Below, one piece after another: positions 3,148 through 50,922 of a stretch of DNA of 64,000 bases. Every line of letters starts with the position of its first letter. Position 1 is the stretch's first letter. The stretch lies in NCBI GenBank assembly GCA_018714105.1, contig DVNW01000006.1, positions 5,689 to 69,688 of the forward strand. Direction: 5' to 3'. Both the position numbers and the translations under genes were made by a program. Origin of the DNA: Candidatus Faecicola pullistercoris (lineage in GTDB: Bacteria > Bacillota > Clostridia > Christensenellales > CAG-917). The notes under the pieces were generated by a model, which had not been told where the DNA came from, searched no databases, and saw nothing but the letters and a program-made list of their open reading frames with translations.

Positions 3148-3162
3148 GTTTCTCCTTACGGG

Positions 3163-4044: not shown

Positions 4045-4055
4045 AAGCTACTCCT

Positions 4056-5057
4056 TTAATTGTTTTGGGATTGGATTAATTTTTGTGCAATCTGCACGGC
4101 GTTGGTGGCGGCGCCTTTTCTGATATTGTCGGCTACGCACCAGATATTGCAGCCGCTTTCCACGCTTTCGTCGATTCTTACGCGGCCGACAAACACTTCG
4201 TCCTTGCCCTCGGCGTCGATAGCCATGGGGTATACGCAGTTTGCGATGTCGTCTTTAAGCACGAGTCCTTCGGCGGAAGCGAGGGCGTCCTTAATTCCTT
4301 GCAGAGTACAGGGCTTTTCGAATTCTATATTGATGGATTCGCTGTGGCCGTGGAATACGGGCACTCTAACCGTGGTAGCCGTGATTTTAAGGCTTTGGTC
4401 GTGCAGAATTTTTTTGGTTTCTTCAATCATCTTCATTTCCTCTTTGGTGTATCCGTTGTCGAGGAATACGTCGATCTGAGGCAGACAGTTGGCGAAAATG
4501 GGGTGATTGAATTTTACGGGCGGCACGCCTTTGATACCGTCTTCGAGGTCCTTGTATCCCTGTACGCCCGCGCCCGAAACGGCCTGGTAAGTGCTGTATA
4601 CTATACGTTTGATTTTGTATTTGTCGTGAAGGGGTTTAAGGGCGACCATAGCCTGTATGGTAGAGCAGTTGGGGTTAGCGATAATACCCTTGTTCCACGC
4701 GATATCCTCGGGGTTGACCTCGGGAACTACAAGCGGGACTTCGGGATCCATGCGCCAGCAGCTGCTGTTGTCTATAACCACCGCGCCTTGCGCCGCAAAC
4801 ACGGGAGCAAAAGCCTTGCTTGTGCCCGCGCCGGCCGAAAACAGGGCGATATCTATATTGAGCGCTTTGACGTTTTCTTCGGTAAGCTCTATAACGGTGT
4901 GTTTTTTACCCATGAAATCTATTTCTTTACCCGCGCTTTTTTTGGAAGCGAACAGATAGTAATTTTCTACGGGCAGCTTTCTTTCGGAAAGAACCTTTAA
5001 AAACATGTTGCCGACCATACCGGTCGCGCCTACTACGGCGATATTGTATTTTTTCAT
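4056..5057 (-). CDS. asd: aspartate-semialdehyde dehydrogenase
   Basis: 333 aa. Contains VVGATGMVG NAD loop and the active-site ANPNCSTIQ. Confidence 0.95.
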   Translation of the reverse strand: MKKYNIAVVGATGMVGNMFLKVLSERKLPVENYYLFASKKSAGKEIDFMGKKHTVIELTEENVKALNIDIALFSAGAGTSKAFAPVFAAQGAVVIDNSSCWRMDPEVPLVVPEVNPEDIAWNKGIIANPNCSTIQAMVALKPLHDKYKIKRIVYSTYQAVSGAGVQGYKDLEDGIKGVPPVKFNHPIFANCLPQIDVFLDNGYTKEEMKMIEETKKILHDQSLKITATTVRVPVFHGHSESINIEFEKPCTLQGIKDALASAEGLVLKDDIANCVYPMAIDAEGKDEVFVGRVRIDESVESGCNIWCVADNIRKGAATNAVQIAQKLIQSQNN

Positions 5058-5127: not shown

Positions 5128-5292
5128 GTACCGAGTAGCCCTTCATCTAAAGATGACAGTCAGCAGGTTTTAACCTTACTGCCCAACGACGGTTTGCCAA
5201 GACGCCGCTTCGGCGATAATACCCTTTTTTCCGAAAGACGGGCCGGCTGCCCCATATAGTCGGAATACTGATGCTTATCGCTCCTCTACTTC
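5128..5292 (-). promoter_or_regulatory. Lysine riboswitch (L-box) leader of asd-dapA-dapB
   Basis: Minus strand reads GUAGAGGAGCG...CAGUAUUCCGA...AUCGCCGAAGCGGCG...UUGGGCAG...ACUGUCAUC...GGGCUACUC. This matches the conserved AGAGG(N)GC / GCCGAAG / CUGUCA blocks of lysC-type leaders. Confidence 0.8.
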
Positions 5293-5302
5293 TATTGGCC
5301 CT

Positions 5303-33174: not shown

Positions 33175-33555
33175 TCAGAAAATATCCTTGAAGTCGAAAT
33201 CCACCGTACTCTGTACGTTTTTAATTAAAATCAGAAGGCTTTGGGTTTTGCTTTTTGCGTTCTGAAGGTCGTCGGCTTGCAAAGAGCCCTTTATTTCGCC
33301 TATGGTAACCGAAACCGTACGTGTATCGGGCGAATAGGTAAAGGTGTCGATATATACTTTCTGTTTCTCCCACCAGGCCAGCATCTCGTCGGTGCGCGCG
33401 AGAGCAGTTTTCGCATCGCCTGAATCGACTGCAAAATCCACGGCCTCGACGAGGTTTTCAAAACGGCTGAAAATCTCGTGGGTGCGGTGATGGTCGTATA
33501 TGCCCGCAGACAGTATTACGGCAAGCATGGCGGCGGCTATCGTCAGACGTTTCAT
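33175..33555 (-). CDS. DUF4363-family protein
   Basis: Signal/anchor MKRLTIAAAMLAVILSA followed by a helical domain. ATGA start/stop overlap with the upstream DUF421 gene. Confidence 0.65.
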   Translation of the reverse strand: MKRLTIAAAMLAVILSAGIYDHHRTHEIFSRFENLVEAVDFAVDSGDAKTALARTDEMLAWWEKQKVYIDTFTYSPDTRTVSVTIGEIKGSLQADDLQNAKSKTQSLLILIKNVQSTVDFDFKDIF

Positions 33556-34274
33556 TCCAGTTTCCCCATATAGCAAGGTTTTAAATAAGGTTGCACAAAC
33601 AAGGTTTTATCCTGTGTAACAGTCATTAAAAACACTTGTTTTTGTATTAATTGCAGCTTTTGCAGTTGCAATTCGATTTGCTGCTCGGAAAGGCCCAGTT
33701 TTATTAAATTGTTTTTGAGAAGCCGGCCTTCGGCTATTACGGTATAGGGCAGAAATTTTTCGCGGTTACTTAGGCCCGCGTCAGACGGGGTATAGGGCGA
33801 ATTGGCGTATTTGGGCATTACGCTCAGGCTGCCGTTGGTTTCGAGCACGGCAAATTCGATTTCTTCCGGGAAGAAATATCCCGCTATGCGCAGGGCTTCG
33901 GAAATGTCGTCCGAATCCATATCCGCCGATTTGACCGCGCGTGTGTCTATATTGCCGCCGTTGATTATTATAAGCGGTTTTCCGTTTAAGATTTTCCTGA
34001 AACGCGGACTTTTTACGGCGATAAAGTTCATGGTTATATGAACTATAAAAAGAGTGAAAACGGGAATTATTCCGTATATGAGCGGTATGGACGGATCGCC
34101 CATGGGCAGACAGGCTAGTTCCGCAATAACCAGCGTTATGGAAAATTCGAAAGGTTGTAACTGTCCTATCTGCCGTTTGCCCATAAGCCGCATTACTATC
34201 AGCAGCACTATATACAAAAGGGCGGATTTCACCATAATATTAAGCATATGGTTATTGTAAATATTATTTGGCAA
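33552..34274 (-). CDS. DUF421 (YetF-like) membrane protein
   Basis: VMRLMGKRQIGQLQPFEFSITLVIAELA is the DUF421 hallmark. The start is uncertain: TTG at 34274, or ATG at 34247 or 34235. Confidence 0.75.
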   Translation of the reverse strand: MPNNIYNNHMLNIMVKSALLYIVLLIVMRLMGKRQIGQLQPFEFSITLVIAELACLPMGDPSIPLIYGIIPVFTLFIVHITMNFIAVKSPRFRKILNGKPLIIINGGNIDTRAVKSADMDSDDISEALRIAGYFFPEEIEFAVLETNGSLSVMPKYANSPYTPSDAGLSNREKFLPYTVIAEGRLLKNNLIKLGLSEQQIELQLQKLQLIQKQVFLMTVTQDKTLFVQPYLKPCYMGKLE

Positions 34275-34334: not shown

Positions 34335-34426
34335 GGCAGAGTAGATAAATCGCGTTAAGTGTTACGGGATGGGATGTAGCCCGTAAACGAAAGGGAAACC
34401 TGCGGTGGTTTATCGCGTTCGCTGCA
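34335..34426 (+). promoter_or_regulatory. THF (tetrahydrofolate) riboswitch
   Basis: GGCAGAGTAGATAAATCGCGTTAAGTGTTACGGGATGGGATGTAGCCCGTAAACGAAAGGGAAACCTGCGGTGGTTTATCGCGTTCGCTGC closely parallels the folT-motif consensus (AGAGUAG..CGCGUUAAGUG...GGGAUG...ACGAA...GCGGUG...GCGUUCGCU). A downstream AACCTC/GAGGTT helix can occlude the SD. Confidence 0.85.
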
Positions 34427-34478: not shown

Positions 34479-35051
34479 ATGACTTATTATTCATCGCAAC
34501 AGGAAATGGACGCGGCGATAGCCGTTCGTCCGCAGGCCAAAAAGCGCCTGACCAACAAGCAGATTGCCTTTATTTCGGTATTTGTGGCCATTTCGGTAAC
34601 CGTAAACGCCGTAGCCGCAAGGGCAATGGGCAACAAACTGTCGTTCGCCTATACGATAGACTTTATGGCAGGATACTTTTTCGGCGGGATCGCGGGTCTT
34701 TTGGTAGGAGGCATAGGCGATTTGCTGGGCTGTCTTCTGGCCGGTTACGCGCCTAATCCTTTTATATTGCTTTCGTCCTGTCTTCTGGGATTTATACCGG
34801 GCATGGTAAAAAAGTTAAAGGTCAGTCTGCCCGCATCGATAGTTATAAGCTATGCTCTTACTCTGACTGTATGCACGGCGTTTATCAATACCTACGGCTT
34901 ATGGCTTATGTACGGCGGCGGACGCACCTTTTTCGCTTATATGGCGGTAAGGCTGACGGCTCAGGCGCCGGTAATAATCGCCAACATCGCGCTTACCTTT
35001 TTCATAATGCCGCTGTTCAGGAAGGTGCTTAAAGCCGAAATTTTCAATTAA
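34479..35051 (+). CDS. folT: ECF transporter S component, folate family
   Basis: 190-aa, 6-TM S-component-like protein directly behind the THF riboswitch. Confidence 0.8.
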   Translation: MTYYSSQQEMDAAIAVRPQAKKRLTNKQIAFISVFVAISVTVNAVAARAMGNKLSFAYTIDFMAGYFFGGIAGLLVGGIGDLLGCLLAGYAPNPFILLSSCLLGFIPGMVKKLKVSLPASIVISYALTLTVCTAFINTYGLWLMYGGGRTFFAYMAVRLTAQAPVIIANIALTFFIMPLFRKVLKAEIFN

Positions 35052-36562
35052 AACATTCTTGCTTTGCGTTTGAGGATACGGGCGGCGTTCAGGTTTACGA
35101 ATACCGTCTTATAGTCCGTTACGCCCGTGAGCTGAGTAAACACGACGTACATACCTGTTGCGCCCGCGGCGGCAAACGGTACGGAAATAATATCGGGCGC
35201 GAAAGCCGAAACTATGCCCAGCAGAAATCTGCAGAATACGGCAGACGGAACGGCACACAGTACGGAGAAGGCCATTTTTTTTGCAGGTATCTCGAAACGG
35301 CACTTTTTATATAGCAAACGTATATTTAAAATACTTGTAAGTGTAAACGACAGGATAAAGCCTAACGCTATCGAATATATTCCTATAAACTTCGGAGTAA
35401 ATACTATGCTCAGCAAAAGCAGCGATGCCCCCGCCAGATAATGGAAAAAGGTTCTTTTTTCCATGCCCAGCGAATTAAGCATGCTTGCGCTGAGCTGGTT
35501 CAGTCCCATAGGGAATATAAGCACGGCGGCAATGCTAACGAAGCGGCCTGACGGCGCGTCGTTGAAAAGAAGCACGGTTATGCTTTCGCCCATAGGCACG
35601 TACAGCATACAGAATGCCGAAGCTATTATCGTGAGAAACAGCAGCGAAGAAGTGATTTTGGCCGTTAATTCGTGCTGTTTCTGCGCCCGGTCGGCTATTT
35701 CGGGCACAAGCACTACCGACAGCGAACCCGTCAGAGTGGTCGGAGCCATAAGCAGAGGAAGGGCCATTCCCGCAACGCGGCCGTATTCGGCCGTAGCCTG
35801 ATATATGTCCATACCGGCCGATACGAGGCGCATGGGTATTACTATTGCCGTCAGGCTGGTTATCAGCCCCGAAAACAGCCTCATCAGCGTTATGGGCAAA
35901 CTTTCTTTAATCAGCAATCCGGCGGAGGAAGGCGCGGCGACGCCGCCCTTCTTTTTTGCGTATATCGCTATCAGCATAACGGCGCAAATTACGTCCGAAA
36001 CGGTAAACGCCGCCGCTATGCCCGTCGCGCCTGCAAGACTGCTGATTATTCCGCTTGCCAGAAAGACGCTCAGCAGAGCGCGAATTACTTCTTCGGCAAG
36101 TTCGGTAACGCTGTAAGTAAGGTAATCTCTTTTTCCCAGAAGCCAGGCTCGGAATACGCAATATACGGCCGAAGTTACGAGTGCGGGCAGCATAATCGTA
36201 AACAGCGGCATTGCGCGTTCGTCCTTGAAAAGCACGGAAAAAGACTGTCTGAAAAGCAGAAATGCCCCTACGGTTATCAGAGCCGTAGATACCGATACGG
36301 CGAGCGAAGCCGAAATATACGAGGCCGATATTTTACGGTCGGCGGACGGCAGGGCGGCTATTCTGCGCGAAAGTATAAGCGGTATGCCCGAGCAGGAAAA
36401 CGCCGCCAGGGTAAAGAATACGGACAGGCAGATCTGATACAGCCCGACGGCTTCCGCACCCAGCTTGCGGGACAGATATATTTTGAATAAAAAAGCAATG
36501 GCGCGGGTAATTACCGAAAATACGCTGACCAGCGCAACCGCTTTGAACAGTTTTGTTTTGAT
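35048..36562 (-). CDS. MOP-superfamily flippase (SpoVB/MurJ-like), apparent ATC start
   Basis: The frame is open from TAA at 36577-36575 down to 35048. The N-terminus (I/M)KTKLFKAVALVSVFSVITRAIAFLFKIYLSRKLGAEAVGLYQ is a typical flippase start. There is no in-frame ATG, GTG or TTG before the GTG at 36235. AAAGGAG lies 7 nt upstream of the ATC at 36562. Confidence 0.75.
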   Translation of the reverse strand: MKTKLFKAVALVSVFSVITRAIAFLFKIYLSRKLGAEAVGLYQICLSVFFTLAAFSCSGIPLILSRRIAALPSADRKISASYISASLAVSVSTALITVGAFLLFRQSFSVLFKDERAMPLFTIMLPALVTSAVYCVFRAWLLGKRDYLTYSVTELAEEVIRALLSVFLASGIISSLAGATGIAAAFTVSDVICAVMLIAIYAKKKGGVAAPSSAGLLIKESLPITLMRLFSGLITSLTAIVIPMRLVSAGMDIYQATAEYGRVAGMALPLLMAPTTLTGSLSVVLVPEIADRAQKQHELTAKITSSLLFLTIIASAFCMLYVPMGESITVLLFNDAPSGRFVSIAAVLIFPMGLNQLSASMLNSLGMEKRTFFHYLAGASLLLLSIVFTPKFIGIYSIALGFILSFTLTSILNIRLLYKKCRFEIPAKKMAFSVLCAVPSAVFCRFLLGIVSAFAPDIISVPFAAAGATGMYVVFTQLTGVTDYKTVFVNLNAARILKRKARMF

Positions 36563-36574: not shown

Positions 36575-36859
36575 TTAATCGGGTATAACCAGAGTTTGGC
36601 CGACAAAAACGTGTTCGGTCATATTGCATTCCTTGATTTTCTGAACGTCGACTCCGAATTTGTTTGCGACCGCCCGGATATCCTCGAAGGGTTTTACGGT
36701 ATAGGTAAAGCCTATATCGGCTATTGCAAGTATGCGTTCTCCCGCCACGAAAGCGGCCGACGGATTGAGCGATTTCAGTAAAGACGCCGAAGTTTTCAGT
36801 TGAGCGGCAAGTCTGACTGCGTCCGAATTTTCTTTTAATCTGAATACTGTATAATACAT
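36575..36859 (-). CDS. LysM-domain protein without signal peptide
   Basis: C-terminal LysM YTVKPFEDIRAVANKFGVDVQKIKECNMTEHVFVGQTLVIP plus a degenerate N-terminal copy. The start is uncertain. ATG at 36859 is preferred because the TTG at 36895 lies in the U-tract of the upstream terminator. Confidence 0.6.
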   Translation of the reverse strand: MYYTVFRLKENSDAVRLAAQLKTSASLLKSLNPSAAFVAGERILAIADIGFTYTVKPFEDIRAVANKFGVDVQKIKECNMTEHVFVGQTLVIPD

Positions 36860-36892
36860 ACTATAAAGTATGTAGGCCCGGCCTGCGATATG

Positions 36893-36925
36893 CAAAAAAA
36901 AACGGCGGAGCAGTTGCTCCGCCGC
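36893..36925 (-). terminator. Intrinsic terminator after the 1327-aa gene
   Basis: Minus strand CGGCGGAGC-AACT-GCTCCGCCG followed by nine T. Confidence 0.85.
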
Positions 36926-36937: not shown

Positions 36938-39900
36938 TTAGTCCTTCATATTCTTATATTTATCGGACTTGTTCTTAATGCTGTCGGGATTGTCCTTAAA
37001 GCGTTTGTCGAAGGAAGAAGCCTTTACTTTGGCCTTCTTCTTGGGAGCGTATTTCTTTATGAAGTAAATAATTACCACTACAATTATAACCGCGCCCAGA
37101 ACGGCCGAGCTTATCCACAGCCAGTTGAGGTTTTTCTTACCGGGATCGGCATCGCCGTCGTCTTTATCCTCGGTACCGGGTTCTATATCGTCGGTAACGG
37201 TAAACTTCATAACGGTATCGCCGACTACCGCGCTGTCGTAAGCGGCCTTATCCGTGGTTTCGATTGCCACGTCGTCGAACATTACGAAGCCTTCAACGTA
37301 GTGGTTGGTTTCGTCCACAACGGTACCCATACCGAGTTTAAGGGTAAAGGACTTGGAAGAAGCGGCCGAATTGAGAACGTAGAATTCGGCGTTAACCCAG
37401 TTGTCGGCGGCAAGGTTAAGGGTGTAATCCGTGCCGTCTATGGTAAGGGTGGCGTAAGCTTTCTGTCCTTCGCCGAGAGCGTAAGTCTTGAAGGAGAAGG
37501 ATACTTTATAGTACTTGCCGGAAGCCGCCGAGGTAGAGGTCGAGGTATAGCTGTAAGCCGCGGCCTTTTCGTTGTAAATAAGCAGCATGCTGTCGCTCTG
37601 CGGAGCGGACAGAACGGTCTGATATTCGGCCTTGTCCTCGTAAATTTCGGCTAGCGATTTGGTAAGCGATTCGTTTACGTATTTGTTGGCGTCGCCGTGT
37701 TCTTCGGTCCATAAAGCCCATTGGGGATTGTCAGCGTCGCCCACGTTGGCGTAAAATACGGTGTCTTCGCTTACGTTACCCGCTTCGCTGTAAACGATAA
37801 AGTCGTCGAGGTTAAGAAGATGATCGATAAAGTCGTCCTTGTTTTCGGCATTAAGCACGCCCGCAAGGGTGTAATCGGCCTCGGTATCGTCGTCAGCGGT
37901 GTCGTCTTTACCCGTCCAGTTGGAGGGAGAATAAAGAATACTGTCCGAAGAAGACGTGCTCGAGAACGAATCGAAGCTGTCCGTCTTGAAGCTGTAAACG
38001 GCGTTGGTGTCGTCGTTCTGAGCGGTTTCGAATTCGGCCGCGTCTATTTCCTGAAGCAGAACCTTGTCAAAGAAGGCCGCTCCGCCGTCGTAATAGTATT
38101 CGGGTTCGGAAATGGCGGTTTTGGTTTCCTTGCCCTCGTCGCCTATATAGAGTCCGAGAACTACGGATTGCGTGGTGAGGTTGGTCTGAATATAGAAAGT
38201 ATAACGCGTCCAGCCGTTGTAAGTCGTATCTGCGGCCGTGTTAATGGTCTTGAAAGAGGCCAGCACGTTGTTGTCGTTACCGTAGAGATAAACTCTGGCG
38301 TTAGCCGAGCCCACCGTTTTGACGAGAACGGAAAGCTGGTAATATTTGCTTGCCGACAAGGAAGCGGAATTGGATTTGTATCCTACCGAAACTTTTCCGC
38401 CGGCCGAGTCCGAAGTTGCCGCGTCGGTAGAGGCTATCATAAGCAGTTTGTCGCCGCCGATATAAGCCAGGTCGCCGATATTGGCGTCCGTAACGGTATC
38501 GGGAACGGGTATAAACATGTTTTCGAAAGCCGAAGCGGGCAGAACGGAACTGTCGTTGATTTCGTTTATGATGTTAGCGATAGTTGCCGCGTCCTTAAGG
38601 TCTACGATACCGCCCAGCTGAGTGCCGTTTTTATTGCTGTTGTTGAACTTCCAGCCCGAAGCGGCACCGAAGTTGTCCGAGAATTCGGCGTCCGCGCCTT
38701 CGCCCGTCATGCCGCCGTTGCCGAGACCTTCGATAAGGCTGTAATCGTAGTTGTTGAATTCGCCGTTATTGAAACTGTCCGAAGTGGTGGTTACGAAGGA
38801 AGTCTTTTTGGCGTAACTGCCGCTTGCCGAGTTGTAAACCGAATACTCGGTACGGGTAAGAGTGAAGTTGGTAAGGAAAGCCTGACCTTCGGCAAGGGTG
38901 GAACTTGTCCATTTGTTACCCGAGCCGAGCGAAACGGTAAGGTAAACGGTTTTGGCTTCTTTACCCGTCTGGATATAGAAAGCGACTTCCTGCCATCCGC
39001 CGATAAGCTTTGTGGTGATGTTTTCCGTATTGATATTGGTAAACGAAGAAAGCGCGGAGGCGTCTTCGTCGTCCGTTTTCTCGAAGAGAGACACGTTTAC
39101 GCCGGCGGAGGACTGAACGTCTTCGGTTTTAATCCAGACGCCGAGGCGGTAATATGAGAAGGGATCGAGCACCATTTTGGCGTCTTCGTATTTAAGGTTG
39201 TAAACTCCCGCAGAGTCCGACAGAATGGCGAGAACCTTATTGCTGTCGGAGTCGTAATAATAAGGCAGGGTGGGCGCCGTATAGTTTCCGAGGTTTTCGA
39301 TGACGTTGTCGGTACCGAGCTGACGGAAAGCGTTTGTCTGAGCTTTGGTATCCCATACGCCCGCTACCACGGAAGAAGCGTCGATGCCGTTCATCAGAGT
39401 GGAGCTGCCTTCGTCGAATACGGGAGTGAAAGCGTCGGTACCGTTTTCGAACAGGCCGTTTTCAAGCAAGGATTCTTCGTCGGTACGCAGGTTGCAGCGT
39501 TTTGCGATGCTGCCGTCGATTTCGGTCTGCTCGTCGCCGGTAACGGGGATGACTGCGTCGGCCGCAAGTTTCTCCACGGTGAGCTTGTCAAAGAAAGCCC
39601 AGCCGCTGCTGAAAGTGCTGTCGTCGTTGCCCGTACCGAAGTGCAGTTCGAGGGTGAGAGATACGTTGGCGTTTTTACTGCCGATAACGTAAAAGTCTAT
39701 TTTCTTCCATTCGCCGGCCGTCGACAGAGTAACTTCGGTGTCGTCGTATTCGGTATTGGTAAGTTTTACGGTAGCGATGTTGGGGTCGGTGGATTCGGGA
39801 AGAGAAACCGTTTTGACCCATATTGAAATTTTGTAGTTGGCGCACTGAGCTATGCCCAGAGTGGCGTTGGTTTTAAACCCGATTGCCGACAGCGCGCTGT

Positions 39901-40921
39901 TGTAAATCATATAAACGTTGCCTACCGAGCCGTCGGGAGTGGAAGGATTGGCCACGCCCTGACCGTAGCTGCCCTTGTTCTCGTCGAAAACGGCGGGGTC
40001 GGTGTTGACTCTGCGGTAGAGGTTGTTTCCGTTACCGGTATTGGTGGCGGAGTACAGGGCGGGTATGTTGGAAGAACCCGTGGACGAGAAGGTCAGATAA
40101 TCGAAATCGGCGTTGGGAACGCGCGTGGTTGTCTTTTTGACGAGGTCGGTAACCGAAATGCTCTCGTAAGTCAGATTTTCGTCCTCAACGGTTTCGAGAT
40201 ATATATTGTCAAAATATGCCCATCCGGCGGAGGTATAGGTATTGTTCGTGCCGAGGGTGAGGTAAAGATATACCGATTTATTGGTGAATTCGTGTCCCTG
40301 AATGTATATCGAATAGGTTTTCCATTCGCCCTTCGTGTCGATATCGGTAAGCTGGAAATAAGTAGCGGACGAACCGTAAAGATAAATCTTCGCGCCGCTG
40401 CCTTCCGTTACGTTGACGGTTTTAACGGAAACGTGCAATTTATACAGTTTGCCGGCGTTTATCGCAAGGGACGAACTAGGATAATAACCCGCATAACCCT
40501 TGTCGGGGTTATAAATCATAAGAACCTGATTATCGTCGGAAAGGCCCTTTATCGAGGAAACGGTTTTGCCGGGGTTAGCGGCGGAATACCATTTTGCGGC
40601 GTCCGAAGAAGTGTCGCTGGAAGTTTCGTCGTCAAGCGAGGGATAGGAAGCGTACGTATCTTCGTTTACGCTGATGACGCCTTTTACGGAATCCGAATAA
40701 TTCGTGCTTACGCTTGTCCAGTTGCTGGGAGAAGCGGGATGCGAGGTAGAACCCGTAGTGGCAAAGTTACCGTTAGGCACCGTAAGGGTGAGACTCTCAT
40801 CGGAAGAACCGCTGCCGCCGTCTTTGTCGTCGTCGTTATTGCAGGCGGCAAGCACAATCATCATTACGGATAACATCACAACAAGAATAATCGTAAGGTA
40901 TCTTTTAAAACTGGTTTTCAT
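36938..40921 (-). CDS. Giant modular cell-surface protein (lipobox, five CBM-like beta-sandwich modules, C-terminal TM with polybasic tail)
   Basis: 1327 aa. Signal peptide with LAAC lipobox. Five modules each end in a W/GxxFFD(K/N)(V/I/L)xL-type block. C-terminal WLWISSAVLGAVIIVVVIIYFIKKYAPKKKAKVK. Confidence 0.8.
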   Translation of the reverse strand: MKTSFKRYLTIILVVMLSVMMIVLAACNNDDDKDGGSGSSDESLTLTVPNGNFATTGSTSHPASPSNWTSVSTNYSDSVKGVISVNEDTYASYPSLDDETSSDTSSDAAKWYSAANPGKTVSSIKGLSDDNQVLMIYNPDKGYAGYYPSSSLAINAGKLYKLHVSVKTVNVTEGSGAKIYLYGSSATYFQLTDIDTKGEWKTYSIYIQGHEFTNKSVYLYLTLGTNNTYTSAGWAYFDNIYLETVEDENLTYESISVTDLVKKTTTRVPNADFDYLTFSSTGSSNIPALYSATNTGNGNNLYRRVNTDPAVFDENKGSYGQGVANPSTPDGSVGNVYMIYNSALSAIGFKTNATLGIAQCANYKISIWVKTVSLPESTDPNIATVKLTNTEYDDTEVTLSTAGEWKKIDFYVIGSKNANVSLTLELHFGTGNDDSTFSSGWAFFDKLTVEKLAADAVIPVTGDEQTEIDGSIAKRCNLRTDEESLLENGLFENGTDAFTPVFDEGSSTLMNGIDASSVVAGVWDTKAQTNAFRQLGTDNVIENLGNYTAPTLPYYYDSDSNKVLAILSDSAGVYNLKYEDAKMVLDPFSYYRLGVWIKTEDVQSSAGVNVSLFEKTDDEDASALSSFTNINTENITTKLIGGWQEVAFYIQTGKEAKTVYLTVSLGSGNKWTSSTLAEGQAFLTNFTLTRTEYSVYNSASGSYAKKTSFVTTTSDSFNNGEFNNYDYSLIEGLGNGGMTGEGADAEFSDNFGAASGWKFNNSNKNGTQLGGIVDLKDAATIANIINEINDSSVLPASAFENMFIPVPDTVTDANIGDLAYIGGDKLLMIASTDAATSDSAGGKVSVGYKSNSASLSASKYYQLSVLVKTVGSANARVYLYGNDNNVLASFKTINTAADTTYNGWTRYTFYIQTNLTTQSVVLGLYIGDEGKETKTAISEPEYYYDGGAAFFDKVLLQEIDAAEFETAQNDDTNAVYSFKTDSFDSFSSTSSSDSILYSPSNWTGKDDTADDDTEADYTLAGVLNAENKDDFIDHLLNLDDFIVYSEAGNVSEDTVFYANVGDADNPQWALWTEEHGDANKYVNESLTKSLAEIYEDKAEYQTVLSAPQSDSMLLIYNEKAAAYSYTSTSTSAASGKYYKVSFSFKTYALGEGQKAYATLTIDGTDYTLNLAADNWVNAEFYVLNSAASSKSFTLKLGMGTVVDETNHYVEGFVMFDDVAIETTDKAAYDSAVVGDTVMKFTVTDDIEPGTEDKDDGDADPGKKNLNWLWISSAVLGAVIIVVVIIYFIKKYAPKKKAKVKASSFDKRFKDNPDSIKNKSDKYKNMKD
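37256..40780 (-). repeat. Five divergent protein-level modules of ~185-245 aa within the giant CDS
   Basis: Approximate modules are aa 48-245, 268-452, 486-692, 716-960 and 978-1222. Each begins with an N(G/A)xF-type motif and contains (K/Y)Y(K/Q/R)(L/V/I)S(V/I)xVKT...W..(Y/V/I)(S/T/D/A/E)FY(I/V)...(L/V)xLxLG...(W)A(F/Y)FD. Confidence 0.7.
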
Positions 40922-41087
40922 TGTGTCTCCTATAATACTGAGATTATTGATATAATTATTATGCTCAATATAATATTAAAAAAGCATTAAACTTCAATAA
41001 TTATAATACAAAGCAAAAAAATATGCAAACTATTTTGAGGCAGATTGAATAAATAAAAGGCAAAAAAGACGGCATAATAAAAAGGTA

Positions 41088-41480
41088 ATGTTGAAATTTG
41101 CAGAGGAGAGTAAAAAAGACAAACTCAAAAAGCGTATTGCGGGACTGAGCGTAGGCGGCGTAATAGGATTCGTAAACGGATTCTTCGGGGGCGGCGCAGG
41201 AATGTTGCTGGTCCCCGCGATAGGTTTGCTGTACGGGTGTTCGGTAAAGCAGAGTCACGCGACGGCTATAGCTGCCGTCCTGCCCATGACTCTTGTCAGC
41301 ACTGCAATATACTATTTTGAAGGAGTGGGCGCGGGAGAGGCTTTCCGGCCTGCTTCCTTAGGCGTGGTCGCAGGGGGAATTCTGGGCGCGGTATTGCTTA
41401 AAAAACTGTCGTCCAAATGGATAGGCGCTATCTTCAACATTATAATGATAGCGGCGGGTGTTCGGCTAATAATAGGCTGA
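41088..41480 (+). CDS. Half-size TauE/SafE (TSUP) family membrane protein, gene 1
   Basis: 130 aa, 4 TM, with GFVNGFFGGGAGMLLVPA signature. Confidence 0.75.
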   Translation: MLKFAEESKKDKLKKRIAGLSVGGVIGFVNGFFGGGAGMLLVPAIGLLYGCSVKQSHATAIAAVLPMTLVSTAIYYFEGVGAGEAFRPASLGVVAGGILGAVLLKKLSSKWIGAIFNIIMIAAGVRLIIG

Positions 41481-41534
41481 ACAGCCCTTTTATTTATCAA
41501 TTTACATATTTAAACATCGGATTAGGTAAATTTT

Positions 41535-41897
41535 ATGTTATGGTTATACGTGTTGGCGGGCATCATAGGAGGATTGCTCGGAGGAATGGGAATGGGCGGC
41601 GGAACTCTGCTTATTCCCATACTTACCGTCATGCTGGACGTGGAACAGCAAACCGCGCAGTTTATAAATCTGGCTTCCTTTATTCCCATGAGTCTGTGCG
41701 CGCTGGCTTTTCATATAAAGAACAGGCTGGTGATATTCAAAGGGCTTTTATACATCGTGATTCCTGCGGTAGTCATGGCGGTTGCGGGCAGTTTTCTTGC
41801 CGTAGGAGCTGACGGCAGGCTTCTGTCCGGTCTGTTCGGAGGGTTTTTGTGCGTTCTGGGCGCGGTATCGCTCGTCGGCGGCGGCATAAAAAAGTAA
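41535..41897 (+). CDS. Half-size TauE/SafE (TSUP) family membrane protein, gene 2
   Basis: 120 aa, 4 TM, with GLLGGMGMGGGTLLIPIL signature. Confidence 0.75.
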   Translation: MLWLYVLAGIIGGLLGGMGMGGGTLLIPILTVMLDVEQQTAQFINLASFIPMSLCALAFHIKNRLVIFKGLLYIVIPAVVMAVAGSFLAVGADGRLLSGLFGGFLCVLGAVSLVGGGIKK

Positions 41898-44480: not shown

Positions 44481-45551
44481 TTATATCAGAATATTGCTTA
44501 TTATTACCTCGGTCATGCGTTCGGTTCCGATTTTTACGAAATTGTCCGTGTAAATATCCGGCGTGCGGTAGCCGTCGGCAAGCGCCTTCTTTACGGCGTT
44601 TTCCACGTCGCGGGCGGCTTCTTCCATGTTGAGCGACAGTCTCAGCATCATCGCTGCGGATAAAATGGTTGCCAAAGGATTTGCCGTGCCCGTACCCGCT
44701 ATGTCGGGCGCGGAGCCGTGTATAGGTTCGTAAAGTCCCGCAGAGGTATTGCCTACGGAGGCCGACGGCATCAGTCCTATGCTTCCCACAAGCGCGGCCA
44801 TGAGATCGCTTAAAATATCGCCGAACATATTAGAGGTAACTATAACGTCGAAATGGGACGGGTTGCGGGCCAGCTGCATGGCGCAGTTGTCTACCAGCAT
44901 GTCTTCGACGGTTACGTCGGGATAATCTTCGTTTATGTCGTGCACTATTTTGCGCCACAGTCTGCTGCTTTCGAGTACGTTTGCCTTGTCCACGCTTACG
45001 AGACGTTTTTTGCGCGTCTGAGCAAGTTCGAACGCCGAGCGGGCTATGCGTTCGGCTTCGAGTTCGCTTATACATTCGGTATCGAAGGCTTCTCTGCCGT
45101 ACTTACCGATGCGGTAACCTCTTTCTCCAAAGTAAATACCGCCTGTAAGCTCTCTTACCATTACGGCGTCTATGCCGTCCGCGAGCAGGCTTTCTTTAAG
45201 CGGAGAAGCGAATTTAAGTTCGGGATACAGCACGGCTTGCCTGAAATTGGCGTAAAGGCCCAGCTCTTTTCTGATTCCCAGAAGGGCTTTTTCGGGGCGG
45301 ACGGGGGCATTGTCCCATTTCGGACCGCCGACTGCGCCCAGCAACACTGCGGACGCCTTTTTACATACGTCAACGGAAGATTGCGGCATGGGCGTACCCA
45401 GGGTATCTATCGCGATACCGCCCATAGGCGCTTCCTCGAAATTAAATACGGCGTCGTATTTTTTGCCGATTGCGGCAAGAACTTTTTTTGCCGACGATAT
45501 TATTTCGGGACCTATTCCGTCGCCGCTTATTGTCGCTATATCGTAAATCAT
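44481..45551 (-). CDS. leuB: 3-isopropylmalate dehydrogenase
   Basis: 356 aa with the NMFGDILSD signature. Confidence 0.95.
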
Positions 45552-46039
45552 AACAATCCTTTTTCGCTAAGGGCTACAAGCCCGCCGTTTTCGATAAGTT
45601 TCTGCACGAATTCGCTTTGTCGGGGAATAACGTAAGAGGTACCGAGAGTAAGATTTTTTATTATTCCCTGCGTCAGATCCGCTTCCAGAATGTCGCCGTC
45701 GCGGGTTTCGTCCGCTATTGCGGCGTTTTCCGTTATATACAGCCCGGTATTAAGGCTGTTGCGGTAAAATATGCGCGCGAAACTCTTTGCTATAACAAGT
45801 TTTATTCCCGAGGCTTTTATTGCAAGAGGCGCGTGCTCTCTGGAACTTCCGCAACCGAAATTGTTTCCTGCCACTATAATATCGCCGTCGCAAACTCTGT
45901 CCTTGAAGGTCGCGTCAAGGTCCTCCATACAGTGCTGTTTAAGATGCTCGGGCGAGCTGGCGTTAAGATACCGGGCCGGAATGATGACGTCGGTATCCAC
46001 GTTGTCGCCGTATTTGAAAACTTTTCCTTTAACCGTCAT
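45548..46039 (-). CDS. leuD: 3-isopropylmalate dehydratase small subunit
   Basis: [13 protein letters not shown], 163 aa. Confidence 0.93.
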
Positions 46040-46048
46040 AATATCTCC

Positions 46049-47305
46049 TTAAATGGTTCGAGGGTCGGTAAGACGCCCGGTAATCGCGCTTGCCGCGGCA
46101 ACGGCGGGGGAGGCAAGATATACTTCGCTTCCCGGGTGGCCCATTCTGCCCACGAAATTGCGGTTGGTAGTGGTTACGGCGCGCTCTCCGTCTGCCAGAA
46201 TACCCATATGTCCGCCCAGACAGGGGCCGCAGGTAGGCGTGCTGACGGCGCAACCCGCGTTTATGAAAGTTTCAAGATAGCCCAGTTTCAGAGCGTCGAG
46301 ATAGATTTTCTGGGTGGCGGGAATTATGATGACTCTCACGCCGTCGGCCGCTTTTTTACCTTTTAAAATTTCGGCGGCAACGGCAAGATCGCCGAGTCTG
46401 CCGTTTGTGCAGCTGCCTATAACTACCTGATCTATCGGAATATCGAAGCCTTCGTCGAAAGTATGCACGTTGGACGGCAGGTGCGGAAAGGCCACTGTGG
46501 GTTGCAATTTTGAAAGATCAATATCGATGGTCCTTACATATTCGGCGTCCGCGTCGGGCACGGTAACGGTAAAATCCGCAACTCCTGCCGAATGCAGATA
46601 TTCTTCAGCCTTACCGTCCACGGGGAAGAAGGCGTTTTTCGCGCCGCATTCTATCGCCATGTTGGCAACGGTGAAACGGTCGTCCATGGACAGGGCGTCT
46701 ATACCGTCGCCGAAAAATTCGAGAGATTTGTAATTTGCGCCGTCAACGCCCGTAATTCCTATCAAAGTCAGTATCAGGTCCTTGCCCGAAACGTATTTTC
46801 CCGGTTTGCCCGTAAGGTTGATTTTAATTGCTTCGGGTACGCGGAGCCAGCCTTTGCCCGACATTATCGCAACGGCCAGATCCGTGCTGCCCACTCCCGT
46901 GGAAAAGGCTCCCAGCGCGCCGTAAGTACAGGTATGCGAGTCCGCTCCCAGTATGATTTCGGACGGACGAACCAGGCCCTTTTCGGGCAGTAAAGCGTGT
47001 TCGATACCCATCTGACCGACGTCGTATACGTGAGATATACCCTGTCTTTGGGCAAATTCCCGTATACATTTGCACTGTTCGGCCGATTTTATATCCTTGT
47101 TAGGCACAAAATGGTCAAGCACGAATATGACGTTATCGGGATTATCGACTTTATCGCCTTTGGCGGCAACGGTCCTGACGGCGACGGGTGCGGTAATGTC
47201 GTTGCCCATAGCCTTGTCCACGTTAACCATTACCACTTCGCCGGGCGAAACGCTTTGTTTTTTGCAGTGAGCGGCTATAATTTTCTGAGTGGCGGTCATT
47301 GCCAT
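46049..47305 (-). CDS. leuC: 3-isopropylmalate dehydratase large subunit
   Basis: Aconitase-family protein with GSCTNGR and PTCGPCLG cluster ligands, 418 aa. Confidence 0.95.
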
Positions 47306-48888
47306 ACGGCATTCTCCTGAATGTTATTTTTTGAAAGTTTGTATTCGACGGAATCGCAAAGAGCTATCCAGCTGGCTTCCACTACGTCGGAAGACACGCC
47401 TACGGTAGTCCAGGTTTCCGCGCCGTCGGAAGAGGTGATAAGAACCCTTACTTTGGCGGCGGTAGCGGCCTCGCCGTTAATTACTCTTACCTTATAATCT
47501 ATTAGCGAAATGCTTTCAATTTGCGGATAAAAGGATTTAAGCGCCTGTCTCAGCGCAATATCCAGCGCATGAACGGGGCCGTTGCCCTCGCCGTTGGCGG
47601 TGGCGAGAGTGCTGCCGACCTGAATTTTGATTACGGCAAGAGCCGCCGCGCCCGCTACGGGCGGTTGCTCGTTTATGACCTTGAAGTTTATCAGTTTGAA
47701 AAAGGGCCTGTAAATGCCGAGGCATTTTTGCGTAAGGATTATGAAACTGGCGTCGGCCCCTTCGAACTGATATCCGTTATTCTCGGCCTCTTTAAGTGCG
47801 GCAAGTATGGAACGGGCCTGTTTGCTTTCCTTTGCAATATCGGGGTATAAATTGTGTATTTTGTTCAAAACGGCAGTTCTTCCCGCCATATCGCTTAATA
47901 AAATGCGTCTTTTGTTACCTACCGTGTCGGGAGATATAAACTCGAAAGTAGAGGAATTTTTGACTACCGCGTCCGCGTGAGTGCCGGCTTTATGGGCAAA
48001 CGCGCCCGAACCTATAAACGGAAAATACGAAGGCACGGTAAGATTGGAAATTTCGGCCACAGCCTTGGCGACGGGGTAGAGCATATGCATTTTTTCGGGC
48101 GGAATCAGGCTGTAACCCATTTTAAGCTGCAAAGTGGGGATGAGGGTGGAAAGATTGGCGTTTCCGCACCTTTCGCCAAGTCCGAGGAAGGTACCCTGAA
48201 TATGTTTTGCGCCGCCTTGCACGGCCGAAACAGTACAGGCAACCGCCATACCCAGGTCGTTATGGCAGTGAATGCCTATGACCGCGTCGGGGAAGGATGT
48301 AACCGCCGTCTGCGTCGCGCTTTTCACGTAATCGGGCAGATTAGCGCCGTTGGTGTCGCAAAGCACAAGTCTGCGTGCGCCGCTCATGAATGCGGTTTCC
48401 AGACATTTAAGCGAGTATTCGGGGTTTTCCGCATAGCCGTCGAAGAAATGCTCGGCGTCGAATATAACCTCTTTGCCGTTTTCGATAAAATACTTTACGG
48501 TATCTGCAATTATTTTAAGATTGTTTTCCGCCGTCGTTTTAAGGACCTCGGTAACCTGCGAAGCGGAGGCCTTTCCGTAAATGCAAACGTATTTCGTGCC
48601 CGCGTCGGCAACGGCTTTAAGCGAAGCGGAGGAAAATGCGTCCGAGTCGGGGTGCGCGGTACTGCCGAAAGCGACGAGGGAAGAAGATTGCAGTTCGGTC
48701 TGAGCGGCTAAAGCGAAAAATTCGGCGTCTTTCGGACTGCTGGCGGGCGAGCCGCCCTCTATGAAAGTAATGCCGAATCCGTCCAGAAGCCGCATGATTT
48801 GCAGTTTGTCCTCTTTGGAAAAGGAAATACCCTCGGCCTGAGCGCCGTCGCGCAGGGTGGTATCGAGGACTTCCAGTTTATTGTTCAT
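47296..48888 (-). CDS. cimA: (R)-citramalate synthase (LeuA-family paralog)
   Basis: [17 protein letters not shown]-like domain plus a LeuA-dimer regulatory domain, 530 aa. The family is certain; the citramalate-versus-isopropylmalate specificity is inferred. Confidence 0.75.
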
Positions 48889-50395
48889 CGGTAACTTCCT
48901 CCATGTGCTTGTTGACGGCGTTGACGTAGGCGAGTATGGCGCTTTCGAGAACGTCGGTGGAAACGCCGCGGCCCGTAAAGAGTTTATCTCCGAGGCGTAG
49001 TTTGATTACGCTTTCGCCGAGTGCGTCTTTACCTTCGGTAACCGAATGAATGGCAAAGTCTTCCAGCGCGAAATCGTATCCCGTAATATTGTTTATGGCT
49101 TTGAAGGCCGCGTCCACGGGGCCGTCGCCGCTGGCGGTTTCCGAAATGACTTCGTCGTTGCTGATAAGCGAAACCTGCACGGAAGCGCCGCCTTTGAATG
49201 AAGACGCCTCGTAATTGTCCAGCGCGTACATGCGGTTGGAAATGGGGCGGGACAGTTTGGGCATGATGGCCTCGATGTCCAGTTTGGAAACCGTTTTCTT
49301 TTTATCGGCCAGATCCTTGAATTTTTTGAAGGTATAGTCGAGCGTGGCGGCGTCGAGTTCGTAGCCCATTTTTTTGATTTCGGCCGCGAAGGCGTGTCTG
49401 CCGCTGTGTTTTCCCAGCAGGAGTTTGTTGTTGGTGATGCCGATGCTTTCCGGGGTCATGATTTCGTAGGTGGAAGGGGATTCGAGAACGCCGTGCTGAT
49501 GAATACCCGCTTCGTGAGCAAAGGCGTTTTCGCCTACTACGGCCTTGTTGGGCGGAATTTTACGGCCTATGATTCCGGTTACGAGTTTGCAGGTGCGGTA
49601 AATCATTTTGGTATTGGCGGCGGTATCGCAGCCGTAAAAAGCCTTTCGCGTTTTAAAGCCCATTATGATTTCTTCCAGGGCGGTGTTTCCCGCTCGCTCG
49701 CCTATACCCGTTACAGTACCCTCTATCTGGTCAGCCCCGGCCCGTACCGCGGCTATGGAATTAGCTACGGCAAGGCCCAGGTCGTCGTGGTTGTGAGTGC
49801 TCAATACCACGTCGGAATTCTCGCCGAGAGAAGCCTTGACAGAGGAAAAGATATTATATATTTCGTCGGGCGTGATATAGCCTACCGTGTCGGGCAGGTT
49901 TATTATTTTGGCTCCGGCGTCCACTGCAGTTTTCGTAGCCTTTATAAGAAATGGAAGTGGGGTGCGGCAAGCGTCTTCAAAAGAAAACTGAATTTCCTTA
50001 AAAAACTTTTTCGCATAGTTTATAGACTCGCTTATAGCCTCTAAAACCTGTTCTTCGGTCATTTTAAGCTTATATTCGAGATGTATAGGCGAAGTCGCTA
50101 TAAACAGATGAAGCCGTGGAAACGCCGCGGGCGCAAGAGCGTCGCGAGCGGCGTCGACGTCAATTTTTCTGCACCGAGCCAGAGCCGCCGCGGTAGTGGT
50201 TTTAAGCAGTTTGGCTATTTCGTAAACGGCTTTGAAGTCGCCGTCAGAAATAACGGGGAAACCGGCCTCGATTATATCTATGTTAAGCTTTTCGAGGGTT
50301 TCGGCAATTTCCAGTTTTTCGTTGATATGCATGCTGCATCCGGGCGATTGTTCGCCGTCGCGCAGCGTGGTATCGAGCAGTTTGATTTGTCTCAT
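48878..50395 (-). CDS. leuA: 2-isopropylmalate synthase
   Basis: [13 protein letters not shown] and HNHDDLGLAVAN, 505 aa. Confidence 0.9.
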   Translation of the reverse strand: MRQIKLLDTTLRDGEQSPGCSMHINEKLEIAETLEKLNIDIIEAGFPVISDGDFKAVYEIAKLLKTTTAAALARCRKIDVDAARDALAPAAFPRLHLFIATSPIHLEYKLKMTEEQVLEAISESINYAKKFFKEIQFSFEDACRTPLPFLIKATKTAVDAGAKIINLPDTVGYITPDEIYNIFSSVKASLGENSDVVLSTHNHDDLGLAVANSIAAVRAGADQIEGTVTGIGERAGNTALEEIIMGFKTRKAFYGCDTAANTKMIYRTCKLVTGIIGRKIPPNKAVVGENAFAHEAGIHQHGVLESPSTYEIMTPESIGITNNKLLLGKHSGRHAFAAEIKKMGYELDAATLDYTFKKFKDLADKKKTVSKLDIEAIMPKLSRPISNRMYALDNYEASSFKGGASVQVSLISNDEVISETASGDGPVDAAFKAINNITGYDFALEDFAIHSVTEGKDALGESVIKLRLGDKLFTGRGVSTDVLESAILAYVNAVNKHMEEVTDEQ

Positions 50396-50404
50396 ATATA
50401 CACC

Positions 50405-50911
50405 TTAAACCTGATCTTTAATACACTTTCTTCCTCTGCCGAGCGCGGCGCCGCCCGTTCTGGCCATTTCGAGAATTCCGAATGGCGAAAGCACTTCTAT
50501 AAATGCGTCTATTTTGGCGGAGTCGCCCGTAAGTTCCAGCATCATGGTATCGTCGGCCGATATATCCACGGTTTTGGCTTTGAATATGGTGGAAATATCC
50601 ACTATTTCGCTGCGTTCCGAGGGTTTAACGTTTACTTTTATAATCAGCAGTTCCCTGAATACGCTTTTGTCTTTTTCGAAATCGGCGACTTTGGCCACGT
50701 CGATTTGTTTTTCGAGCTGCGCGGCAATCTGCTTTATGGATTTGTCGTTGGCCGATACCGTTATGGTCATTCTGGAAAACTCGTCGTCCTCGGTAGCGCA
50801 TACCGAAAGACTGTCGATGTTGTATCCTCTTCTGGAAAAGAGGCCTGCTATTCTCGACAGGACGCCGGGTTTGTTGTTTACGAGTATTGACAAAACGTGT
50901 CTTTCCTGCAT
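50405..50911 (-). CDS. ilvN: Acetolactate synthase small (regulatory) subunit
   Basis: HVLSILVNNKPGVLSRIAGLFSRRGYNI ACT domain, 168 aa. Confidence 0.93.
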   Translation of the reverse strand: MQERHVLSILVNNKPGVLSRIAGLFSRRGYNIDSLSVCATEDDEFSRMTITVSANDKSIKQIAAQLEKQIDVAKVADFEKDKSVFRELLIIKVNVKPSERSEIVDISTIFKAKTVDISADDTMMLELTGDSAKIDAFIEVLSPFGILEMARTGGAALGRGRKCIKDQV

Positions 50912-50922
50912 TTGAAATCTCC

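Follow-up and report, generated by a model that had tools for sequence, protein, structure and literature searches.

At positions 36938-40921 of a 64,000-nucleotide (nt) window from Candidatus Faecicola pullistercoris (Bacillota, Clostridia, Christensenellales; contig DVNW01000006.1 of assembly GCA_018714105.1, positions 5,689 to 69,688) lies a large gene encoding a protein of 1327 amino acids (aa), the target of this analysis. An original prediction, made from the sequence alone, had described the product as an envelope protein with a lipobox, five divergent modules resembling carbohydrate-binding modules (CBMs) and a C-terminal membrane anchor. The open reading frame (ORF) is real and lies on the minus strand, which the prediction had left unstated; read on the plus strand, the same interval carries stop codons throughout. 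Our analysis finds an exported, non-enzymatic protein built from five CBM4/22-like jelly rolls and carrying anchoring signals at both ends as well as a conserved tail, and adds to the earlier description the strand, the family size, conserved cytoplasmic tail motifs and a conserved split-TauE neighbour. The features of the gene product are:

36938-40921, minus strand: coding sequence, 1327 aa plus stop (ORF list and translation)
40841-40921, minus strand: signal peptide and lipobox (aa 1-27, MKTSFKRYLTIILVVMLSVMMIVLAA followed by C), Cys27 being the predicted lipidated residue
40187-40780, minus strand: module 1 (aa 48-245), CBM4/22-like beta jelly roll (hhalign, hidden Markov model (HMM) cross-matches, AlphaFold2, Foldseek)
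39566-40120, minus strand: module 2 (aa 268-452), same fold as module 1 (hhalign, HMM cross-matches, AlphaFold2, Foldseek)
38846-39466, minus strand: module 3 (aa 486-692), same fold, closing motif degenerate (hhalign, HMM, AlphaFold2, Foldseek)
38042-38776, minus strand: module 4 (aa 716-960), same fold (hhalign, HMM, AlphaFold2, Foldseek)
37256-37990, minus strand: module 5 (aa 978-1222), helical insertions within the same fold (core predicted local distance difference test score (pLDDT) 85-91; hhalign, HMM, Foldseek)
37127-37255, minus strand: acidic, low-confidence linker from module 5 to the membrane (aa 1223-1265; pLDDT <50)
37049-37126, minus strand: C-terminal transmembrane helix (aa 1266-1291; hydropathy, modelled as a helix by AlphaFold2)
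36941-37048, minus strand: predicted cytoplasmic tail (aa 1292-1327, 36 aa; positive-inside rule)

Judged by profile comparison, the five modules are mutually homologous, far beyond chance. When five profiles cut as slices from an alignment of 18 family sequences were compared by hhalign, all ten module pairs were matched with probabilities of 98.9-99.9% and E-values of 1e-17 to 4e-37 (5e-26 to 4e-37 for module 1 against the others). Each module HMM likewise recovered all five modules within the window protein, with independent E-values mostly between 1e-11 and 1e-32, the weakest cross-match being that of the module 3 HMM on module 5 (E 0.003). MAFFT aligned the five segments with common landmarks, and the strand blocks modelled by AlphaFold2 agreed with the module boundaries that had originally been proposed. 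'Divergent' was an apt description, as plain self-BLASTP detected no repeats and profile methods were needed to find them. The claim that each module opens with N(G/A)xF holds for modules 1-4 (NGNF at 50, NADF at 270, NGLF at 488 and NGEF at 719) and fails for module 5, which has TDSF, whilst the proposed closing motif GWA(F/Y)FD is exact in modules 1 and 2 only and degenerates to GQAFLTNF, GAAFFDKV and GFVMFDDV in modules 3, 4 and 5, respectively. Every module is then followed by a short helix-containing linker, conserved in the alignment of relatives and present in the AlphaFold2 models. The module HMMs matched no other ORF of the window, excluding a paralogue elsewhere within it.

Structure prediction supports a common fold. 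The AlphaFold2 model of the N-terminal half (aa 40-705, 13 sequences) was all-beta, with a pLDDT of 79.4 and a predicted template modelling score (pTM) of 0.76, and most 10-residue blocks of the all-beta module 1 scored between 65 and 93. The C-terminal half (aa 700-1327, 13 sequences) reached a pLDDT of 64.4 and a pTM of 0.56, comprising module cores at pLDDT 70-91, the transmembrane helix and insertions of low confidence, among them a long, partly helical one in the first half of module 4. Foldseek searches of the PDB matched the tandem CBM22 of Xyn10C (4xup) to both halves (E 2e-11 and 8e-9 for the N- and C-terminal half, respectively). Further matches were CBM4-2, CBM16 and a porphyran-binding CBM (2y64, 4bj0, 2zex, 8xmz) for the N-terminal half, at target template modelling (TM) scores of 0.63-0.72 (CBM4-2 at 0.66-0.72), and CBM61 (2xom) for the C-terminal half, with single CBM targets over both halves spanning TM-scores of 0.52-0.72. 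Accessory domains of GH101 enzymes and a Bacteroides surface glycan-binding protein (SGBP-B) were also retrieved, as were non-lectin proteins with the same fold, namely reelin, MAM domains and the Vip3 and Cry toxins. On the modelled fold, assignment of the modules as CBM4/9/16/22-like beta jelly rolls is well supported, in line with the CBM4/9/22-type sandwich originally proposed, for which AlphaFold2 and Foldseek returned CBM22, CBM4 and CBM16.

Membership of a CBM family is a separate matter. The modelled jelly rolls superpose on solved CBM4, CBM16 and CBM22 modules, as expected of the CBM_4_9 fold, but the window protein has no match to the corresponding sequence profile (PF02018) even at E <= 1, and only one of 18 relatives does (P0014, E 1.4e-5). 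Seven distant members have no Pfam domain; a three-module profile searched against PDB sequences retrieved no CBM (best match a phage depolymerase, E 0.13), and the whole protein gave only chance-level matches in Pfam, NCBIfam and PDB sequences (VacA2, RIFIN, nanobodies and a gene transfer agent spike fibre at E 0.002). Pfam and NCBIfam detected no catalytic domain in the window protein, 17 relatives or the seven distant members, which places the modules outside the CAZy definition of a CBM as part of a carbohydrate-active enzyme. The same proteins lack Pfam matches to S-layer homology (SLH), cohesin and dockerin domains, as had been predicted along with the lack of catalytic and LPXTG signatures. 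The modules are best called CBM-like and not filed as CBM family members, because neither the sequence profile nor the enzyme context applies and sugar binding is a prediction from the fold. The usual landmarks of CBM4/9/16/22 modules are N-G-x-F-E/D in the first strand, Y-x-[VL]-S-x-W-V-K in the centre and F-D-[DN]-[VI]-x-L in the last strand. Residues conserved across the modules and their orthologues fall in motifs that we take to be typical of the core strands of this fold; they look fold-determining and do not demonstrate a ligand site.

Both ends of the protein carry predicted membrane anchors, and a 19-residue hydropathy scan found only two hydrophobic segments, at aa ~4-30 and ~1264-1293. 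The N-terminus reads MKTSFKR-YLTIILVVMLSVMMIV-LAAC-NNDDDKDGG, in which a basic n-region leads into a hydrophobic h-region (hydropathy peak 2.9) and then a canonical L-A-A-C lipobox, exactly as originally quoted (MIVLAAC before NNDDDKDGG), and it conforms to the bacterial lipoprotein pattern [LVI][ASTVI][GAS]C within ~35 residues after basic and hydrophobic regions. Ala26-Cys27 is invariant in 18/18 relatives, and the lipobox pattern is present in 123 of 154 family representatives of at least 900 aa. From these features we infer that the protein would be exported by Sec and lipidated at Cys27. The ectodomain between the anchors (aa 28-1264) is strongly acidic, with an isoelectric point (pI) of 4.2, abundant Ser, Thr, Asn and Asp and two cysteines.

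At the other end, the linker that leads from module 5 to the membrane terminates in a juxtamembrane N-W-L-W-I-S-S motif, and the helix is succeeded by a tail that begins with a polybasic stretch (KKYAPKKKAKVK) and continues with a proximal S-F-D-K-R and a C-terminal S-D-K-Y-K-N-M-K-D; the C-terminus as first quoted (IKKYAPKKKAKVKASS) matches the translation exactly. The transmembrane helix and polybasic stretch recur in 124 of the same 154 representatives. Past the scanned hydrophobic core there are 15 Lys/Arg against five Asp/Glu, and the tail is predicted to be cytoplasmic because it is lysine-rich, following the positive-inside rule, with the helix probably staying in the membrane. A sortase or other cleaved C-terminal sorting signal was considered and rejected: a single [LIV]PxTG-like string occurs, IPVTG at aa 458, ~800 residues from the transmembrane helix, and the conserved tail is long (36 aa). 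Neither of the two outcomes that the original prediction had named as counting against it, modules without beta-sandwich or CBM similarity and the lack of a C-terminal transmembrane segment, occurred.

The target is a member of a large family that has no annotation and is typical of uncultured Christensenellales-like Clostridia of the gut. A word-indexed protein search of public metagenomes recovered 18 full-length relatives (1275-1526 aa, 24-44% identity) along with a 99%-identical copy (P0001). All 18 keep the Ala-Cys lipobox, five modules, transmembrane helix and basic tail, and one is titled 'hypothetical protein [Christensenellales bacterium]'. Lipobox, five modules and helix likewise persist in the majority of the 150 best representatives of the family. 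This search returned the same 18 relatives with a single sequence and with a profile, and the true size of the family became apparent when 1.84 billion cluster representatives (50% identity) were searched exhaustively with an HMM, which yielded at least 1386 proteins at E <= 1e-3, 576 of them at E <= 1e-30. Most of these are 1000-1800 aa long with 2-6 matched stretches, and the named distant members are again titled 'hypothetical protein [Clostridiales bacterium]'. Among GTDB species genomes, the 8-residue pattern [STK]GYAFFDN, taken from a sub-alignment, led to at least 130 confirmed relatives, where a single-protein scan of genome contigs had given no match. The 79 loci kept all derive from uncultured isolates or metagenome-assembled genomes (MAGs), mostly from animal guts, with named sources that include chicken, mouse, rabbit, horse, ruminants and Hadza humans, and with record titles such as Christensenella, Christensenellaceae, Christensenellales, Clostridia, 'Candidatus Limadaptatus' and similar. 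No cultured Christensenellales genome carried the gene among the best 80 genome matches, Pfam and NCBIfam hold no model of the family, and literature searches found no published description of it. Nine loci that carry the gene (L007, L008, L012, L028, L035, L039, L050, L057 and L062) are titled 'uncultured Bacteroidaceae bacterium'; these labels look wrong, and we take them as binning or naming errors because several of the loci share the TauE/SpoVB-like/DUF421 neighbourhood described below.

Conservation extends to the C-terminal end of the protein. A Phe or Tyr occurs within the last ten residues in 102 of 117 transmembrane-bearing representatives (exactly at position -3 in 69), with Asp two residues before it in 67/102 and Asp or Glu two residues after it in 77/102. 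The resulting consensus is [KR]-D-[KE]-[FY]-[KND]-[DE]-COOH (motif D-K-[FY]-K-D), which takes the form SDKYKNMKD in the window protein. Across the 144 representatives whose transmembrane helix falls somewhere in the final 40% of the sequence, 45 tails contained a proximal x-[YF]-D-[KR] motif, compared with 7 expected, and a juxtamembrane W-L-x-I-[PS]-[ST] motif (pattern W..I.[PST][ST]) lay beside the helix in 121. A distant Asn/Lys-rich subfamily (P0117-P0162, e.g. L086 8001-11231) consists of proteins of ~1000-1240 aa that have no lipobox and keep the juxtamembrane motif and transmembrane helix (as an F-D-W-L-L-x-P-[ST] transmembrane segment), with the tail extended to 110-300 Lys/Glu-rich, coiled-coil-like residues. 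Because of the conserved tail and juxtamembrane motifs and the extended tail of this subfamily, the C-terminal helix is read as a retained membrane anchor with a putatively functional cytoplasmic end and not as a cleaved sorting signal. That lipobox-less members keep the helix suggests that the N-terminal lipid anchor may be the more dispensable of the two.

Three putative expression signals flank the coding sequence:

41000-41029, minus strand: promoter-like site, TTTGCA-18 nt-TATAAT (consensus scan, 10/12 matches; a consensus match only)
40927-40930, minus strand: GGAG ribosome-binding site, 5 nt 5' of the ATG (read directly from the sequence)
36902-36925, minus strand: intrinsic terminator with a 10-bp stem, 8 GC pairs, a 4-nt loop and T8

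The promoter-like site lies ~80 nt 5' of the start codon, within an AT-rich divergent intergenic region common to the TauE genes, and the terminator, originally described as strong and as the gene's own, indeed begins 13 nt past the stop codon. With its own ribosome-binding site, promoter-like site, AT-rich upstream region and intrinsic terminator, the gene looks monocistronic. An Rfam scan found no RNA element near it. Its G+C content (~0.50-0.52) is the same as that of its surroundings, and given this, the housekeeping neighbours and the conserved synteny, a phage or mobile origin was rejected.

The neighbouring genes that recur around the target, and a folate-related insertion among them, are:

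41088-41897, plus strand: split TauE/SafE-family exporter pair, divergent from the target (Pfam PF01925)
36575-36895, minus strand: LysM protein, downstream on the target's strand (Pfam E 1e-8)
35048-36562, minus strand: SpoVB-like MurJ/Wzx-family flippase (TIGR02900 E 6e-39 for the listed ORF)
34479-35051, plus strand: folT, folate-family energy-coupling factor (ECF) transporter S component (TIGR04518 E 6e-22)
34335-34426, plus strand: tetrahydrofolate (THF) riboswitch (Rfam RF01831, 75.9 bits)
33552-34274, minus strand: DUF421/YetF-like protein (Pfam/NCBIfam)
33175-33576, minus strand: DUF4363 protein (Pfam/NCBIfam)

In the window the order is TauE pair, target, LysM, flippase, THF riboswitch and folT, DUF421, DUF4363, a major facilitator superfamily (MFS) transporter, a metallo-beta-lactamase-fold protein, uvrA and uvrB, confirming that LysM and flippase genes lie downstream on the same strand as the target. 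The two TauE half-genes are arranged in swapped order, in one reading frame with a stop and 54 nt between them, such that the gene at 41088-41480 (plus strand) covers the C-terminal half of PF01925 (profile positions 119-237, E 4e-21) and that at 41535-41897 (plus strand) the N-terminal half (positions 2-109, E 1e-14). The split pair is a lineage feature and not a pseudogene, because the same pair adjoins the target in 76-78 of 84 related loci.

These 84 loci were searched by tblastn with the neighbours from the window. The TauE halves were matched in 78 and 76 loci, the SpoVB-like flippase in 62, DUF421 in 47, DUF4363 in 43 and LysM in 23, the last being a short protein to which tblastn is insensitive; malQ and PPTase were matched in 0/84. 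The TauE halves almost always diverged from the target, 150-750 bp upstream of it, the flippase was usually co-directional and 400-1400 bp downstream, and DUF421 and DUF4363 were mostly co-directional and downstream. The same order was found in L004, around the 25%-identical P0013, and in L086, around the lipobox-less P0119, and TauE also sits beside the target in both P0119 and P0100, the latter having a TauE gene upstream. The TauE-target-LysM-SpoVB-like-DUF421-DUF4363-uvrAB block extends from the window out to relatives sharing 24-36% identity, and the distant subfamily shares the TauE/LysM/SpoVB-like/DUF421/DUF4363/uvrAB neighbourhood. No glycoside hydrolase, ATP-binding cassette (ABC) or phosphotransferase system (PTS) sugar transporter, or regulator was linked to the target in the loci read. 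On gene order, a functional link of the target to the TauE pair or the downstream genes may exist.

Several further observations concern the surrounding genes. The flippase ORF was listed from a GTG at 36235, yet its frame is open back to the LysM stop, and an ATC at 36562-36560, 12 nt past LysM and preceded by AAGGAG at a spacing of 7 nt, would add the N-terminus KTKLFKAVALVSVFSVITR. The gene probably starts at this non-canonical codon, the extended N-terminus looking like a native flippase start, and a full-length orthologue in L001 matches TIGR02900 (SpoVB) at E 3e-68. A truncated pseudogene was rejected because of the open frame, the good ribosome-binding site and the probable ATC start. 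The THF riboswitch and folT form an opposite-strand insertion within the otherwise co-directional flippase-DUF421 block. Elsewhere, malQ is nearby in the window and Rnf was among the neighbours seen. A lysine riboswitch (5128-5296, minus strand; Rfam RF00168, 76.1 bits) lies upstream of minus-strand genes at ~1948-5057. A 1453-aa ORF at 52802-57163 (plus strand), which no module HMM matches, has an N-terminus that by eye resembles a large multi-pass efflux-type transporter (resistance-nodulation-division, AcrB-like). The interval 44481-52497 (minus strand) holds, again by eye from translations, a branched-chain amino-acid biosynthesis block of leuB, leuD, leuC, two 2-isopropylmalate/citramalate synthase-like genes, ilvN and ilvB, an ordinary housekeeping context.

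We tentatively favour, at a probability of roughly 0.4, an endogenous envelope role in which the protein binds or organizes peptidoglycan or a wall polysaccharide, possibly coupled through its tail to a cytoplasmic partner. Because both ends appear to be tethered via short acidic linkers, the ectodomain would be held flexibly against the outside of the membrane, within or immediately beneath the wall, and would not project freely. From there the modules, whose sugar binding we infer from their modelled fold, could bind a repeating carbohydrate polymer multivalently, with the protein acting as an envelope organizer or tether and the conserved tail possibly engaging the cytoplasmic partner. As ligand we favour peptidoglycan or a secondary wall polysaccharide, both polymers of the bacterium's own envelope, because the family occurs in at least 130 species genomes, keeps a fixed neighbourhood, adjoins flippase and LysM genes and is not accompanied by a hydrolase or sugar-transporter operon. 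This housekeeping context weakly favours an own-envelope role over nutrient capture. The function first suggested, a multivalent glycan-binding adhesin or a scaffold spanning the wall, is likewise a hypothesis.

Several points weigh against this envelope role. The predicted fold is the one line of evidence for carbohydrate binding, as no CBM sequence model matches the window protein, and the same jelly roll serves protein-binding and purely structural roles in reelin, MAM and Vip3/Cry proteins, all among the Foldseek matches. Lipidation, topology and expression are likewise predicted. Gene order may be conserved because genomes of this lineage rearrange slowly and not for reasons of function, and two loci with ample upstream flank (L003 and L009) have no TauE pair. 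The target is also the fastest-evolving gene of the block (in L004 the target shares 25% identity, the TauE halves, flippase and DUF421 share 38-49% and UvrA shares 68%), a pattern also expected of an exposed adhesin or antigen.

It is possible, if doubtful, that the protein instead serves to adhere to or capture polysaccharides from outside the cell, for instance dietary fibre or host mucin. It would then be a Gram-positive counterpart of the SusE/F-type lipoproteins, with its five modules holding the polymer at the cell surface for uptake or colonization. A lipoprotein with tandem CBM-like modules and no enzyme, whose Foldseek matches include SGBP-B (7kwb, E 4e-11) and xylan-, xyloglucan-, porphyran- and galactan-binding CBMs, would suit such a role, as would the origin of the listed genome records, mostly animal guts and all uncultured isolates or MAGs, the fast evolution of the ectodomain and the proximity of malQ in the window. 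The genomic context speaks mildly against a nutrient-specific adhesin, however. The malQ gene of the window has no counterpart near the 84 related genes, catabolic or transport genes and regulators are not linked in the loci read, and the great majority of these loci share one fixed neighbourhood, unlike the usual situation of substrate-specific binding proteins. Anchoring at both ends would moreover limit outward reach, and neither it nor a conserved cytoplasmic tail is needed by an adhesin.

The fixed neighbourhood is also compatible with a membrane-anchored protein coat or spacer without a sugar ligand, in which the jelly rolls would serve as rigid blocks packing with each other or with neighbouring copies, forming a layer at the surface or in the inner wall zone comparable to membrane-anchored S-layer glycoproteins. 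The large, very acidic, Ser/Thr/Asn/Asp-rich and almost cysteine-free ectodomain fits this description, the pTM of 0.76 for three modules modelled together suggests that these pack in a fixed manner, each module is succeeded by a short, conserved linker containing a helix, and the residues conserved across modules appear to belong to the fold core. We nonetheless regard the coat as improbable, since its self-assembly and high abundance are conjecture, Pfam detects neither SLH nor any other known S-layer anchoring domain, and the closest structural relatives are mostly genuine carbohydrate-binding modules. A single-pass receptor or coupling protein, relaying a ligand signal or mechanical load through the helix to a partner that recognizes the tail, perhaps with the split TauE, is very unlikely: the conservation of the D-K-[FY]-K-D, [YF]-D-[KR] and W-L-x-I-S-S motifs across very divergent members, the growth of the tail into a long coiled-coil-like region in the distant subfamily and the constancy of the TauE pair (76-78/84 loci, also P0119 and P0100) would all accord with it, but no kinase, anti-sigma or other signalling domain is present in the protein or encoded nearby, short motifs in a tail of 36 aa could just as well constitute a localization or stability signal, and divergent neighbours may merely share an intergenic region.

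The own-envelope role can be extended to a bolder proposal, which we consider rather unlikely as a whole, whereby the protein would be the ectodomain-bearing half of a previously unrecognized envelope-spanning system, conserved throughout a large clade of uncultured Christensenellales-like gut Clostridia. The modules would hold or read a wall glycan, the juxtamembrane and D-K-[FY]-K-D motifs would dock a cytoplasmic partner, and the protein would work with the adjacent split TauE. If true, such a system would connect the inside of the cell with the assembly or integrity of its wall.

Christensenellales rank with the most heritable and health-associated bacteria of the gut, yet the majority of their lineages are uncultured and little work has been done on their envelope. 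The proteins of this family, annotated solely as 'hypothetical protein', may be among the largest in the surface or envelope of these bacteria, and defining their module would improve annotation at once. Whilst the fold is ordinary and the lineage, although mostly uncultured, much studied, two-ended anchoring combined with a conserved short cytoplasmic motif is unusual for a multi-CBM protein. Knowledge of the ligand and of the tail partner would show how thin-walled Clostridia organize their envelope or attach to glycans.

Compared with known systems, the modules share the beta jelly roll of CBM4/9/16/22/61 (PF02018, galactose-binding-domain-like clan) and show the sequence landmarks given above. 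They are larger than those CBMs (185-245 aa, as against 137-167 aa for the single-module CBM chains compared), are extended by long insertions that in modules 4 and 5 are partly helical, and have neither an attached carbohydrate-active enzyme nor a CBM profile match, their likeness being one of predicted fold. SusE/SusF-type SGBPs such as that of B. thetaiotaomicron (SGBP-B, 7kwb; Foldseek E 4e-11 and 2e-9) resemble the window protein in that a lipoprotein anchor at the N-terminus precedes non-catalytic, CBM-like beta-sandwich domains in tandem. Those proteins belong to Bacteroidota, however, whereas the window protein comes from Clostridia-type genomes, as record titles and neighbours indicate, and has an additional C-terminal transmembrane anchor and a conserved cytoplasmic tail. 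In place of the SusC/SusD-type neighbours that define a polysaccharide utilization locus, it is flanked by TauE halves, LysM, SpoVB-like, DUF421, DUF4363, uvrAB, and Rnf or malQ.

The GH101 endo-alpha-N-acetylgalactosaminidases (EngBF 2zxq, SpGH101 5a57) and a Paenibacillus alpha-1,6-glucosyltransferase (5x7o) likewise combine several CBM-like jelly rolls in a large exported protein and gave the top Foldseek E-values (3e-12 to 2e-11), but at overall TM-scores of 0.08-0.2, such that individual domains alone are alike, and they carry a catalytic domain where the window protein has none. BcsB, the periplasmic subunit of cellulose synthase, also presents jelly-roll carbohydrate-binding domains outside the membrane on a single C-terminal transmembrane anchor; its Foldseek match is weak (9b8i and 5eiy_B, probability 0.82-0.85), and, unlike BcsB, the window protein has no flavodoxin-like domains and no adjacent glycosyltransferase or synthase gene in the loci read. 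Overall, the design of the window protein differs from that of SGBPs and multi-CBM glycosidases in its second anchor, its conserved cytoplasmic motifs and its conserved, non-catabolic neighbourhood.

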